A DNA stretch of 62,956 bases from positions 1 to 62,956 of the forward strand of contig JACPKM010000002.1 in the NCBI GenBank assembly GCA_016187025.1. Direction: 5' to 3'. Under the pieces are notes generated by a model. The model was not told the origin of the DNA. It did not search any database and saw only the letters and a program-made list of their open reading frames with translations. Positions 7,825 to 61,673 of the stretch are shown here, piece after piece. Each line of letters starts with the position of its first letter. Position 1 is the first letter of the stretch. The translations under genes and the position numbers were made by a program. Origin of the DNA: Candidatus Daviesbacteria bacterium (GTDB taxonomy: Bacteria > Patescibacteriota > Microgenomatia > Daviesbacterales > UBA10151).

Positions 7825-8610
7825 ATGAAAAACTCCCTAGATATTTGGCACACTGAAAAATATTACACCAAAGCAGGAGAGGCAAGTCTTGATGATAATC
7901 ATCCAGGGATGAAAGCGCTGCTTTTATCAAGCAAAGATGCAAACACTATTTTAGACCTAGGTTGTGGTGAGGGTACAAGATTAAATCTTTTAAAGGGTAG
8001 CGGCAAAAGGTTAGTAGGGATTGATATTTCTGATAAGGCAATTGAGATGGCAAGGTTAAAGTACAAAGGTATAGAATTTGTACAAGGTGACCTTGAGAAT
8101 TTGCCTTTTGATGAAGATGAGTTTGACCTTGTTTATTCTGCATTTGTACTGGAGCATTTGGTTGACCCAATGAAAGTCTTAAATCAGGCTTTAAAAGTTT
8201 TAAAAAAGGGGGGAAAAATAGTATTACTTGCCCCCAATTATGGAGCTCCTAATCGTTGCTCGCCACCTTTTAAAGGATCCAGATTAATAAAAATTTTCAT
8301 AGGATTAATTGATGATATAAAATCGATTTTTTTCAAAAGCCAGAAACTTTGCTGGAATAAAGTAGAGCCTATATCAACAAAGGAGCAATATGATATCGAT
8401 TGGGATACCACAATTGAGCCTTATATAAGATCCTTAGTTGACTATTTATCTGTAAAAAATGTTAGGATGATAATTGCGAATTCTTGCTGGGGTGAAGAGC
8501 TGCCTAATGCAAAATATTTTCAAAGGATTTTCCGCTTTTTAGGAGATGGAAATATTTACCCGTTTGTTTTCTGGGGTCCCCATTTAGTATTTGTAGGAGA
8601 GAAGATATGA
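7825..8610 (+). CDS. Class I SAM-dependent methyltransferase
   Basis: ILDLGCGEG motif I, GIDIS, FDLVYSAFVLEHL. Confidence 0.9.
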   Translation: MKNSLDIWHTEKYYTKAGEASLDDNHPGMKALLLSSKDANTILDLGCGEGTRLNLLKGSGKRLVGIDISDKAIEMARLKYKGIEFVQGDLENLPFDEDEFDLVYSAFVLEHLVDPMKVLNQALKVLKKGGKIVLLAPNYGAPNRCSPPFKGSRLIKIFIGLIDDIKSIFFKSQKLCWNKVEPISTKEQYDIDWDTTIEPYIRSLVDYLSVKNVRMIIANSCWGEELPNAKYFQRIFRFLGDGNIYPFVFWGPHLVFVGEKI

Positions 8611-9293
8611 TTTCAGGAAAGCCGACTTTAGAAAGTATGAGTATTGCAACCTCGTATAACCAGTGGACTTTTAATCTTTTTAAAAAATACTTAAAAGGAG
8701 AAATACTGGAAGTTGGTTGCGGGATCGGTAATTTTACCGGTTACCTTGCCCAACACGGAAGTGTTACTGCAATTGATATAGAACAGGAATATATTATAAA
8801 TTTATCCAAAGAGAAGAAAGCAAATATAACTTATAAAATTGCTGACATATCTTCAAAAAAGTTTTCAATTGGCAAAAAGTTTAATGCTATTGTTTGTATA
8901 AATGTTTTAGAACATATCAAAGATCATAAAACTGCACTAGAAAATATATCTAGTGCACTCAAAGAAGATGGATATTTAATTTTACTTGTTCCTGCACATC
9001 AGTTTTTATATGGAGAAATTGATAAAAACATTGATCATTTCAGAAGATATGATAAAAAACAGTTGCAAAACTTATTAATAAATGCTCAATTTAATATAAG
9101 AAATATTCGAAAGCTAAATCTGTTAGGAGCAATAGGATGGTTTATTACAGGAAAAGTTTTAAAAGAAAAGGATGTTGATGAAAATAAAATTAAGTTATTT
9201 GATTTAGTTTCTCCCCCATTTCTTTTTTTTGAAAAAATTATAGAACCACTAATTGGTACATCGCTTTTGGCTATAGCAACAAAAAAACTGTGA
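8607..9293 (+). CDS. Class I SAM-dependent methyltransferase
   Basis: ILEVGCGIG, NVLEHI, LLVPAHQFLY...DHFRRY. Confidence 0.9.
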   Translation: MISGKPTLESMSIATSYNQWTFNLFKKYLKGEILEVGCGIGNFTGYLAQHGSVTAIDIEQEYIINLSKEKKANITYKIADISSKKFSIGKKFNAIVCINVLEHIKDHKTALENISSALKEDGYLILLVPAHQFLYGEIDKNIDHFRRYDKKQLQNLLINAQFNIRNIRKLNLLGAIGWFITGKVLKEKDVDENKIKLFDLVSPPFLFFEKIIEPLIGTSLLAIATKKL

Positions 9294-55011: not shown

Positions 55012-55085
55012 GGTTGTGTAGCTCAGTTGGTTAGAGCGCTTCATTCACATTGAAGAGGTCTCTGGTTCGAGTCCAGACACGACCA
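55012..55085 (+). tRNA. tRNA-Val(CAC)
   Basis: Cloverleaf: acceptor GGTTGTG/CACGACC, D-stem GCTC/GAGC, anticodon arm CTTCA-TTCACAT-TGAAG, T-loop TTCGAGT; discriminator A; CCA not encoded. Confidence 0.95.
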
Positions 55086-55093
55086 CATTTAAC

Positions 55094-59920: not shown

Positions 59921-59999
59921 AGATATGAGAATAGTATAGAAACTTAAGCTCATCGATTCAAGAAGAATATTTACAATGTTTTTAGTATAATTTTTATGC

Positions 60000-60087
60000 G
60001 CGGTGGTAGTTCAGAGGGTTCGCTACGCAAGTGCGAACGGGAGTCCTGTGGACTCCCAGGAAGAATGTCTTTTCTGCGAAGCAGGAA
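60000..60087 (+). other. Partial tRNA-Gly 5' half copy with hairpin insertions
   Basis: 60000-60014 is identical to the first 15 nt of the tRNA (60132-60146); AGAATGTCT resumes at 60062; three hairpins; no T-arm or 3' acceptor strand. Confidence 0.7.
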
Positions 60088-60131
60088 TCTGATACAAGAT
60101 ATATCATTCCGACGCACTCTTAATATAATTT

Positions 60132-60206
60132 GCGGTGGTAGTTCAGTGGTAGAATGTCTCCTTCCCAAGGAGAAGGTCGAGGGTTCAAATCCCTTCCACC
60201 GCTCCA
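60132..60206 (+). tRNA. tRNA-Gly(CCC)
   Basis: Acceptor GCGGTGG/CCACCGC, anticodon arm TCTCC-TTCCCAA-GGAGA, T-loop TTCAAAT, discriminator T, encoded CCA. Confidence 0.96.
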
Positions 60207-60388: not shown

Positions 60389-61003
60389 CTACACTTCCAC
60401 TAGTTCTACGCCATCATTATTCACAACGAATGCTTGATTGTCATTTAGTTTTTTCAATTTGTACTTATCCCCATATTGGTTGAATATTTTTTCAAGATAA
60501 GAAGTATATTTAGGGTTATCTGCATGAGGTAGGATTACAAAATCTACAAAACTTAGTCCTTCATATGACTTGAGTTCCTTACCAAACTCACCATCGTCAT
60601 ATATCTTGTCTACTTCAATATTGGGACAAGCAAGCAATGACCCAGCGCTTGATCCTACGTATATTTTCCCTTTTTTGACCAGGTCTTTAGCTAATTCAAT
60701 AAATCCACTCTTTTGAGCTTTTTCTAGTAAATAAGAGGTATTGCCTCCCGCTACAAAAATTATGTCTTTATCTAAAAGACTTTTTTCTAATTCATCTCTA
60801 GCTTTGCCTTTTATATCCAACTCTTCAACTTGAAACCCTAAATCAATGAGCTTTTTTCTATCTTCTTCCATCCAGGGTTTTTCTTGGTAAAGGTCTCCAG
60901 CAGTTGGGATAAATGCTACTGTCATTTCTTGGGGAGATTTAGGCAGTAAAGGAATGAGTTTGTCTAAAGTTTTAGATGCAACAGATGTTAGATAAATTAA
61001 CAT
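60389..61003 (-). CDS. Peptidase S51 (PepE-like)
   Basis: AFIPTA, VAGGNT, GSSAG nucleophile elbow, ILPH. Confidence 0.88.
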   Translation of the reverse strand: MLIYLTSVASKTLDKLIPLLPKSPQEMTVAFIPTAGDLYQEKPWMEEDRKKLIDLGFQVEELDIKGKARDELEKSLLDKDIIFVAGGNTSYLLEKAQKSGFIELAKDLVKKGKIYVGSSAGSLLACPNIEVDKIYDDGEFGKELKSYEGLSFVDFVILPHADNPKYTSYLEKIFNQYGDKYKLKKLNDNQAFVVNNDGVELVEV

Positions 61004-61275
61004 TATTTAAATTGAATTTGAAGGGTAGTATTGAGAGCTGCTGCGACTTTTTTAAGCAATGCAATTGAAGGACTTGTCCTTCCTTGCTCTAAACGGGAAA
61101 TAACAGATTGGGTAGTATTCATCCTCTTAGCCAATTCTTTCTGAGTAATTTTATTCTCAATTCGGGCACGAATGATAGCCTTAGCAATTTCAAACTCAGG
61201 TTGTGAATCCTCGTAGAGTTTTTTAAACTCAGGATCTCTTAGTAGTTTTTGTTTATAAGTGTTCCAGTTGGTCAT
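61003..61275 (-). CDS. XRE-family HTH antitoxin (HigA-like)
   Basis: IIRARIENKITQKELAKRMNTTQSVISRLEQG..PSIALL; ATG at 61275 fits the promoter. Confidence 0.88.
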   Translation of the reverse strand: MTNWNTYKQKLLRDPEFKKLYEDSQPEFEIAKAIIRARIENKITQKELAKRMNTTQSVISRLEQGRTSPSIALLKKVAAALNTTLQIQFK

Positions 61276-61281
61276 AAAGTA

Positions 61282-61310
61282 ATGATATCGCAAATTTGCG
61301 ATATTGTCAA
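61282..61310 (-). promoter_or_regulatory. Antitoxin-specific sigma70 promoter with palindromic operator
   Basis: TTGACA-N17-TATCAT, 6 nt before ATG 61275; perfect 20-bp palindrome ATATCGCAAATTTGCGATAT at 61285-61304. Confidence 0.85.
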
Positions 61311-61313
61311 TAA

Positions 61314-61673
61314 TTATTTTCCAATCTTTCTTAGTTTATATTCCTGTAAACGTTCTTCTGTGACTTTAATCTCTTTAGTTGGAGTCTTCTGCTTTTTCTT
61401 TTTAAAACCATGTAAGATAAGGAATATTTTACCTGTTATAGTAACATACAAAATTCTAATGCTATCCGAGCCTAAAATACGATACTCCCATAAATCGGTT
61501 CCGGTAAATTTTTTAATATGAGGATAACCACCTTCTAGCCCAAATGTTTCCAGCAGTTCAAAAGCATGAGCAATTTTTAAATTAGCTTTCTTATCAAGGG
61601 AATCAAAAAACCCTTCAACTGGTTTTTCACCTCTGGCATTTTCATATAACTCAATTTTCCATTTATTATCCAT
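61314..61673 (-). CDS. RelE/ParE-family toxin (HigB/Gp49-like)
   Basis: YENARGEKPVEGF...PHIKKF...LWEYRI...RILY...LHGFKKKKQKTP..EI; toxin precedes antitoxin. Confidence 0.88.
   Translation of the reverse strand: MDNKWKIELYENARGEKPVEGFFDSLDKKANLKIAHAFELLETFGLEGGYPHIKKFTGTDLWEYRILGSDSIRILYVTITGKIFLILHGFKKKKQKTPTKEIKVTEERLQEYKLRKIGK

Follow-up and report, generated by a model that had tools for sequence, protein, structure and literature searches.

The window analyzed here is a 62,956-nt stretch of DNA from a Candidatus Daviesbacteria bacterium, one of the bacteria of the candidate phyla radiation (CPR) (contig JACPKM010000002.1, positions 1 to 62,956 of the forward strand; assembly GCA_016187025.1). 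Near its end lies an intact tRNA-Gly(CCC) gene and, directly 5' of it, a 132-nt unit (60000-60131) in which the 5' half of the same tRNA is repeated with two hairpins in its D-loop. A first-pass annotation, made from the letters of the sequence, had drawn attention to this arrangement, and our analysis confirmed the observation itself, namely a duplicated tRNA 5' half carrying a double hairpin. Read from the sequence, the unit is composed, in this order, of positions 1-19 of tRNA-Gly(CCC) (segment A), a 44-nt core of two hairpins, positions 21-29 of the tRNA (segment B), a GCGAAGC mini-hairpin and an AT-rich spacer, after which the intact gene begins (Table 1). By comparison with the intact copy, the upstream piece corresponds to positions 1-29 of tRNA-Gly(CCC) with U20 swapped for 44 nt (60018-60061).

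Two copies of the 15-nt sequence GCGGTGGTAGTTCAG lie at 60000-60014 and 60132-60146, as the first-pass annotation had claimed, and the window contains no third; no such repeat is expected by chance (100 shuffles). We also detected a second repeat, AGAATGTCT, absent from that annotation, which covers tRNA positions 21-29 and is found at 60062-60070 and 60151-60159. A TATAAT motif stands ahead of each copy, also as described, 8 nt before the first and 2 nt before the second. The TATAAT-N8-G1 spacing of the upstream copy is the same as at the uninterrupted gene of genome G016 (compared with locus L007), and this TATAAT may represent the native promoter context of tRNA-Gly(CCC); a consensus scan gave no -35 partner for this putative promoter element.

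Segment A spans the acceptor 5' strand, the D-stem 5' strand and the D-loop through G18 G19, with a single difference from the intact gene, U16 to A at 60015. Segment B spans A21, the D-stem 3' strand GAAT, G26 and the first 3 nt of the anticodon stem. Sequence and folding agree with the earlier description of two hairpins placed in the D-loop, flanked by AGG...AGG, with the D-stem kept. In hairpin 1, a GTTCGC/GCGAAC stem encloses an inner AC/GT pair and a GCAA loop, and hairpin 2 is identical to hairpin 2 of the tRNA-Thr unit of the same genome. As DNA, the core folds as hairpins 1 and 2 with a z of -4.95 (0/200 shuffles as good), and the complete 132-nt leader folded as RNA gives a z of -2.86. 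The GCGAAGC hairpin, which had been reported in place of the anticodon arm, was found there, inside the longer stem of a triloop hairpin (hairpin 3).

Table 1. Features of the unit and of the adjoining tRNA gene (window coordinates).
Feature	Position	Strand	Basis or remark
TATAAT box	59987-59992	+	8 nt before first copy; putative promoter role
Segment A, copy of tRNA-Gly(CCC) positions 1-19	60000-60017	+	sequence comparison
Core hairpin 1, GTTCGC-TACGCAAGT-GCGAAC	60018-60038	+	predicted folds; covarying helix
Core hairpin 2, GGGAGTCC-TGT-GGACTCCC	60039-60057	+	sequence; covarying helix
AGGA, 3' end of the core	60058-60061	+	comparison with intact copy and with filled/empty pairs
Segment B, copy of tRNA positions 21-29	60062-60070	+	sequence comparison
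Hairpin 3, TTCTGC-GAA-GCAGGA, including GCGAAGC (60076-60082)	60072-60086	+	sequence, fold
AT-rich spacer X, with weak hairpin (60084-60110) and second TATAAT (60124-60129)	60087-60131	+	sequence, fold
Intact tRNA-Gly(CCC), CCA encoded	60132-60206	+	ARAGORN; Rfam, 71.8 bits

At the gathering threshold Rfam matched two tRNAs alone, and the upstream copy received no ARAGORN call and no Rfam match on 60000-60131 even at E<=10. Two simple explanations of the upstream copy were rejected. The first, a functional tRNA gene at 60000-60119, is contradicted by the missing finder call, by the triloop that replaces the anticodon arm and by the downstream 62 nt, which are unlike a tRNA 3' half. The second, a decayed full-length copy with a relic T-arm and acceptor strand, was ruled out by similarity at the level of shuffles, as local alignment of spacer X with the tRNA 3' half was no better than that of shuffled sequences (p = 0.95).

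Recurrence and structural conservation of the unit

The 117 nt between the two repeats also matched this genome at three other places. From five copies we then built a covariance model and searched CPR genomes with it, all of the genomes compared being metagenome-assembled genomes (MAGs); in this genome the model identified six units, associated with Gly-CCC, Gly-GCC (two in tandem), Thr-GGT, Pro-UGG and Lys-UUU. In this search, of a kind that the first-pass annotation had proposed, the unit turned out to be a recurrent family with covarying stems: the model gave more than 100 matches, distributed over 57 of the 96 genomes and 34 of the 63 genera of one bacterial family (Daviesbacteria-type CPR). 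Among 301 genomes sampled across the class, the matching genomes all belong to this family (0/281 for the others). An exact-pattern scan of 185,579 species genomes matched 13 stretches, ten of which are Daviesbacteria-type MAG contigs and the other three, on inspection, high-GC coding sequence that we took as chance. Metagenome contigs added 23 further stretches, viral contigs gave 0 matches to the element, and in the literature we found no description of it.

The units at the three other places and in two relatives follow a shared plan, consisting of tRNA positions 1-19, hairpin 1, hairpin 2, AGGA, tRNA position 21 to about 26-33, a spacer and the intact cognate tRNA. Overall, 5' copies of ten or more tRNA species contain the core at one and the same position of the D-loop. 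Hairpin 1 is variable in sequence, while hairpin 2 reads GGGAGTC...GACTCCC across units and can accommodate an expansion of about 50 nt with a small hairpin of its own. A GC-rich hairpin with a GAA or GAAA loop often comes after segment B (Gly, Pro, Lys, His and Arg units); the Thr unit is without hairpin 3 and spacer, with TTTT alone before the gene. In the tabulated units, the half-copy and the next matching tRNA 5' end are 5-99 nt apart, and the intervening DNA contains no open reading frame (ORF).

Over 42 aligned members, in an alignment that was fitted to the model and hence somewhat favors structure, 98.2% of the cells were paired and 16 of the 19 pairs showed changes on both sides, compared with at most 46% of cells paired in slid controls. 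Hairpin 1 covaries over the 42 members (helices 3 and 4), and in hairpin 2 (helix 5) both-side changes were found at 6/7 pairs. Segments A and B follow the sequence of the cognate tRNA genome by genome, a behavior that fits gene conversion or a recent origin. The closest relative of the Gly-CCC unit is the Gly-GCC unit of the same genome (80% identity, including segment B and hairpin 3), from which it was probably copied by recombination between the similar Gly genes.

We also considered the proposal of the first-pass annotation that both 5' strands could pair with the single 3' acceptor strand. At this locus the proposal holds, all seven bases of the acceptor strand being identical (7/7), but it is not conserved family-wide: the acceptor strand is identical to that of the next tRNA in 16/29 units, and by our own count about 6 of the 13 differences are pair-preserving or wobble-compatible, with no bias. 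The 29 units thus give no support to a conserved competition for the 3' acceptor strand.

Recurrence also bears on the most trivial explanation, namely that the similarity is fortuitous or that a repeat was misassembled. Assemblers struggle at such places, and contig C2 of this assembly indeed terminates (G000:C2:300464-300714) within a tandem pair of Gly-GCC-type units, each of 131 nt and identical to the other; as a tRNA-Gly(GCC) gene is missing from the whole assembly, the break was probably caused by this tandem repeat. The copy in the window is surrounded by unique sequence, 2.7 kb away from the end of its contig, its 15-nt repeat is beyond chance, and dozens of MAGs assembled independently, as well as metagenome contigs, show the same architecture, so that the probability of an artefact is negligible and the unique, unconserved or artefactual sequence that the first-pass annotation had named as its refuter is contradicted. 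For genome annotation, the unit explains odd tRNA half-genes and assembly-breaking tandem repeats in CPR genomes, and the covariance model can be used to mask or annotate such units.

Filled and empty sites

Comparison of related genomes revealed loci with and without the unit. At the orthologous Gly-CCC locus of G003 and G009, the same upstream Ig-like gene is followed directly by the tRNA, with no unit. In G101, tRNA-Phe, 5 nt, a unit and tRNA-Gly(GCC) follow each other, while in G092, whose flanks are 89-99% identical, the order is tRNA-Phe, 5 nt and the intact Gly gene; the Phe-Gly locus is likewise empty in G096, G097 and G106, congeners of G101. Filled and empty loci among congeners therefore indicate gain or loss of the unit over short time scales, and the loss can be precise, as recombination between the two segment A copies would predict. 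A remnant between tRNA-Phe and tRNA-Gly of G105 (L092, G105:C6), in which segment B, a decayed hairpin 3 and the spacer are kept and segment A and the core are gone, indicates that units also decay through partial deletion. In the genome of the window, every upstream 5'-half duplicate holds a core, and core-less 5' duplicates were not found.

Matches of the model that had no tRNA part led to copies of the core outside tRNA genes. In one case it lies within the C-terminal tail of ribosomal protein S16, in the same frame and downstream of the Pfam S16 domain (residues 13-71). Less certain than the S16 case are copies in open frames that precede an L1 domain or a LamG domain, and a copy antisense in another ORF. 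Other small palindromic repeats carry further copies in their loops (CACCTCGG...CCGAGGTG; GTCATCCTGAGC...GAAGGATC; GTCATTGCGAGG...GCAATC).

One clean non-tRNA site allowed us to define the insertion to the nucleotide. The filled site in G108 reads ...CCTCGGATGG[GTTCTGCACGAAGTGCGAACTGGTCTCCATTGGAGACCCAGGA]GGCCCGAAGG... and the empty site in G103 reads ...CCTCGGATGG-T-GGCCCGAAGG..., so that a 43-nt insertion stands in place of a single T after TGG (GGATGG-T-GGCCC), with no duplication of the flanks, in the loop of a pre-existing palindrome. The change in the tRNA D-loop is identical (TCAGTGG-T-AGAG to TCAGTGG[...AGGA]AGAG), and the left flank TGG, common to the tRNA sites and to the G108 site, constitutes a fixed short motif. 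By raw count, the flanks are predicted to pair with each other and enclose the core in a stem at 12/17 non-tRNA sites. Duplicated flanks at the copies in coding regions were considered and ruled out: the seeming repeat is part of a palindromic element that was already in place and that G103 and G104 possess with no core in it. At one and the same locus, the host palindrome of G108, CACCTCGGATGGTGGCCCGAAGGGACTCCTCCGAGGTG, varies between congeners, some having it and others not (L111 in G103 and L119 in G104, compared with L115, L118 and L114). It therefore represents another small insertion element, and such elements nest.

Mobility, host function and rival origins

We favor, with a probability of roughly 60%, the interpretation that the core is a small, non-coding, structure-targeted insertion element, which at tRNA genes persists in redundant 5' fragments alone, as part of a co-transcribed leader. 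Of the three options offered by the first-pass annotation, an element that targets tRNA D-loops or 5' ends was thus the best supported, although the target appears broader than a tRNA, namely TGG^T in a hairpin loop. The element would move at the DNA level and land in the single-stranded loop of short hairpins, beside TGG, recognizing the hairpin loop as its target. The D-arm of tRNA genes would be the commonest target, and loops of other small palindromic repeats, some of them in ORFs, would also be used. Insertion into a functional tRNA would inactivate it, and therefore copies would be seen only in redundant 5' fragments beside an intact gene, survivorship being the presumed cause of the half-copies. 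According to our own reasoning, short tandem duplicates without a core would be quickly lost, and an inserted core would break the homology and stabilize the duplicate. Units could be lost precisely by recombination between the segment A copies, and homogenized or spread among similar tRNA genes by the same kind of process. Transcription of the unit together with the tRNA would give a structured 5' leader for removal by RNase P, and the data do not require a host function.

Several observations weigh against an insertion element. No mobilizing protein was identified, and the candidates considered below (GIY-YIG, canonical IS200 and Y1-like proteins) could not be linked to the core. No core-less 5' duplicate was seen as an intermediate, no mechanism was shown for duplication of the tRNA half and the survivorship argument is an inference, and neither excision products nor polymorphism within a population appeared as a direct sign of movement. 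The fit of the covariation alignment to the model, mentioned above, calls for similar caution. Finally, three features are compatible with function: several genera possess the Phe-Gly and Thr-GGT units, which show compensatory changes, units belonging to different tRNAs repeatedly have a GC-rich hairpin behind segment B, and the tracking of the cognate tRNA by segments A and B also fits a functional, expressed RNA.

These last features lead to the alternative of a functional structured leader or tRNA-like small RNA, in which the three-way junction formed by the D-stem and the two hairpins would regulate folding or RNase P processing; in a variant of this reading, the junction would bind a protein or a ligand, or pair transiently with the nascent cognate tRNA in its 3' half. 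In every case the unit lies immediately 5' of its cognate tRNA and in the same orientation, which implies co-transcription, and such a role would also be in line with the strong covariation, with persistence of the unit in different genera at the Phe-Gly and Thr loci despite divergence of the spacer, with convergence of the GC hairpins after segment B, with co-variation of segments A and B with the cognate tRNA between genomes and with the identical acceptor strand in the window. Nevertheless, 39/96 family genomes do not have the unit, and at a given locus most congeners are without it, the loss being precise; an identical core is found in coding frames, antisense and in unrelated palindromic repeats; the acceptor-strand differences are not biased toward wobble-compatible changes; and some units are without hairpin 3 and spacer. 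We therefore regard a leader function as unlikely. Of the corresponding suggestion in the first-pass annotation, a structured leader controlling tRNA maturation, the conserved structure and the expected co-transcription stand, while precise loss, the in-ORF and antisense copies and the lack of a pair-preserving bias speak against control of maturation. If the unit were nevertheless a functional leader, it would represent a new kind of tRNA-mimicking control element.

Turning to proteins that could mobilize an insertion element, small GIY-YIG genes abound in the family (2-18 per genome), with none in this genome, and the closest GIY-YIG/core pair among the matches listed is about 750 nt apart, with no link shown. 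In G092 (L089, G092:C10, minus strand), tRNA-Gly(GCC) is followed, after about 60 nt, by a GIY-YIG gene for 80 aa; this gene is preceded by the hairpins TCATTTGAC-TTT-GTCAAATGA and GGTTCGCCC-AAA-GGGCGACC, which are unlike the core, and a repeat of the tRNA 3' end, CCGCTCCC, also stands before it. Canonical IS200 TnpA is encoded in ten family genomes, and all nine with intact copies carry the element; most element-bearing genomes, this one included, are without canonical TnpA. An origin from IS200/IS605 was rejected, as the end hairpins of canonical IS200 copies (six family genomes) are unrelated to the core. Genes for Y1-like proteins of about 220-250 aa are present in 83/96 genomes irrespective of the element, with no correlation. 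These proteins, often in many copies, match the C-terminal two thirds of the Y1 transposase profile alone and in this respect resemble RAYT proteins, the REP-associated tyrosine transposases linked to repetitive extragenic palindromic (REP) sequences; an example is G000:C9:7363-8037 (L087 864-1538).

We also asked whether movement could take place at the RNA level, with an intron-like RNA reverse-splicing at U20 and the units representing integrated complementary DNA of modified 5' tRNA halves. The copy covers the same range (position 1 to about 29-33) as a classic 5' tRNA half, the insertion sites are loop nucleotides exposed in RNA, and a single U is replaced in two unrelated contexts. On the other hand, a reverse transcriptase was found in 24/96 family genomes and is absent from this genome and from most unit-rich genomes; the tRNA splicing endonuclease (PF01974) gave no match in this 98%-complete genome, with positive archaeal controls; the 43-nt core is unlike any Rfam ribozyme or intron and would be an unlikely catalyst; and the repeat ahead of the second copy includes TATAAT, which would be untranscribed. 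An RNA-level element is accordingly very improbable. The intron-like insert, the third option of the first-pass annotation, did not survive this comparison either, the interrupted copy being without a 3' half in a genome without splicing endonuclease or reverse transcriptase. Two catalytic RNAs were likewise discarded: a group I or group II intron, whose catalytic core takes hundreds of nucleotides compared with an insert of 44 nt with no Rfam match, and a hammerhead ribozyme, whose core CUGANGA...GAAA does not fit the junction by eye, the GAAAC of one copy not being conserved.

Another possibility is that the unit is the scar of a site-specific integration, that is, an attL-like junction left by an attP that mimicked the 5' part of the tRNA, with hairpins derived from recombinase-binding repeats and the body deleted. 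A partial duplication that restores an intact gene is integrase-like, and duplicates of the tRNA 3' end occur downstream of two tRNA-Pro genes. This possibility conflicts with the position of the core, flanked on both sides by tRNA sequence (segments A and B) with no crossover boundary, and with the occurrence of the same core as a plain 43-nt insertion without duplication at a non-tRNA site; moreover, none of the more than 100 matches encloses cargo or adjoins an integrase. We consider an integration scar extremely unlikely.

Returning to the insertion element, we put forward only tentatively, as a proposal that is probably wrong in part or in whole, that it belongs to a new class of mobile element: a protein-less double hairpin of about 43 nt, mobilized in trans and aimed by shape at TGG^T hairpin loops, for which the D-arm is the main target and tRNA halves are safe landing pads. 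In a variant of this proposal, the tRNA-scaffolded three-way junction would have been co-opted as an expressed RNA. If mobile, the core would be among the smallest structured insertion elements known, with a target set by the hairpin loop at one tRNA nucleotide; it would imply a further structure-specific nuclease or transposase in bacteria with 1-Mb genomes, and it would show essential single-copy tRNA genes coexisting with an element that would destroy them.

Known systems and other tRNA-linked insertions

Among known systems, the element appears to work most like repeats of the Rickettsia palindromic element (RPE) or REP type and like hairpin-dependent single-strand transposition. RPEs are small, non-autonomous palindromic insertion repeats of 100-150 bp, and those inside reading frames are translated. 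Similarly to RPEs, the core is short, protein-less, hairpin-forming, lineage-restricted, multi-copy and patchy between relatives, and it is tolerated inside ORFs (S16) and in or next to RNA genes. Unlike RPEs, it measures about 43 nt, or about 110 nt with an expanded hairpin 2; it prefers one nucleotide of the tRNA D-loop and replaces a single T; and at tRNA genes it is always within a duplicated 5' half. With palindrome-associated transposable elements (PATEs), which consist of IS200/IS605 ends only, and with REP/RAYT systems, it shares a mobility that would rest on DNA hairpins in single-stranded DNA, as well as a short fixed left motif (TGG) and no target-site duplication at the clean non-tRNA site. 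It differs from IS608-type ends in that its hairpins abut the ends of the core, leaving no room for a guide and for the spacing of a cleavage site, and from PATEs and REP/RAYT systems in that the resident IS200 hairpins are unrelated and the Y1/RAYT-like genes uncorrelated with the element.

Hairpins are also targeted by class C group II introns, which insert at terminator stem-loops, and by the IS1111-attC group, both of which are kilobase-sized and encode their own enzyme. As in these systems, the target is apparently a stem-loop and not a long sequence; in contrast to them, the core encodes nothing. The insertion in the D-loop and the separate tRNA halves recall archaeal non-canonical tRNA introns and split or permuted tRNAs (PMC3978253), and as in split tRNAs (PMC3978253), in some relatives an outer tRNA is split around another gene. 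The differences from the archaeal introns and split tRNAs (PMC3978253) are that the genome is bacterial (tmRNA, transfer-messenger RNA, is present) and has no splicing endonuclease, and that the interrupted copy is without a 3' half and adjoins a complete conventional gene.

Additional tRNA-linked insertions were observed in this genome and in its relatives. In nested relatives (L032 1501-1730, L033 1501-1760, L057 1501-1740 and L135, the latter on the minus strand as stored, ~8590-8860), an outer pseudo-tRNA surrounds an inner tRNA: the outer 5' half carries the D-loop core, a complete Val, Met or Pro tRNA lies at the place of the anticodon loop, and the outer 3' half (anticodon-stem 3' strand, T-arm and acceptor 3' strand) follows the inner tRNA. 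In L033 the inner tRNA is tRNA-Met, with a 13-bp helix on its flanks. The tRNA-Val(CAC) of the window (55012-55086) has no such outer shell.

A second type of element was found at tRNA-Pro(UGG) and tRNA-Pro(GGG) of this genome (G000:C1:9418-9522, minus strand, and G000:C4:331718-331860). Some 105-125 nt downstream of each tRNA, an insert precedes a duplicate of the tRNA 3' end, which runs from the 3' side of the T-loop to the acceptor end, with 16-17 of 18 positions identical; both inserts contain GAAATTTRACTGCGCTTGTCGCTGTTCA, and the arrangement mirrors that of the 5'-half units. In several family members, about 230 nt are inserted behind CTGT in the anticodon loop of tRNA-Asn(GUU) (L039 1630-1990; L043 and L046 on the minus strand), and this insertion looks like a group I intron. 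ARAGORN misses these interrupted tRNA-Asn genes, and it also calls no tRNA-Asn in this genome.

Downstream of tRNA-Gly(CCC), the minus strand of the window (60389-61673) carries ORFs of 204, 96 and 119 aa. The 96-aa ORF product resembles a helix-turn-helix protein of the XRE type and, judged by eye, may form with the 119-aa ORF a pair that is similar to toxin-antitoxin modules.

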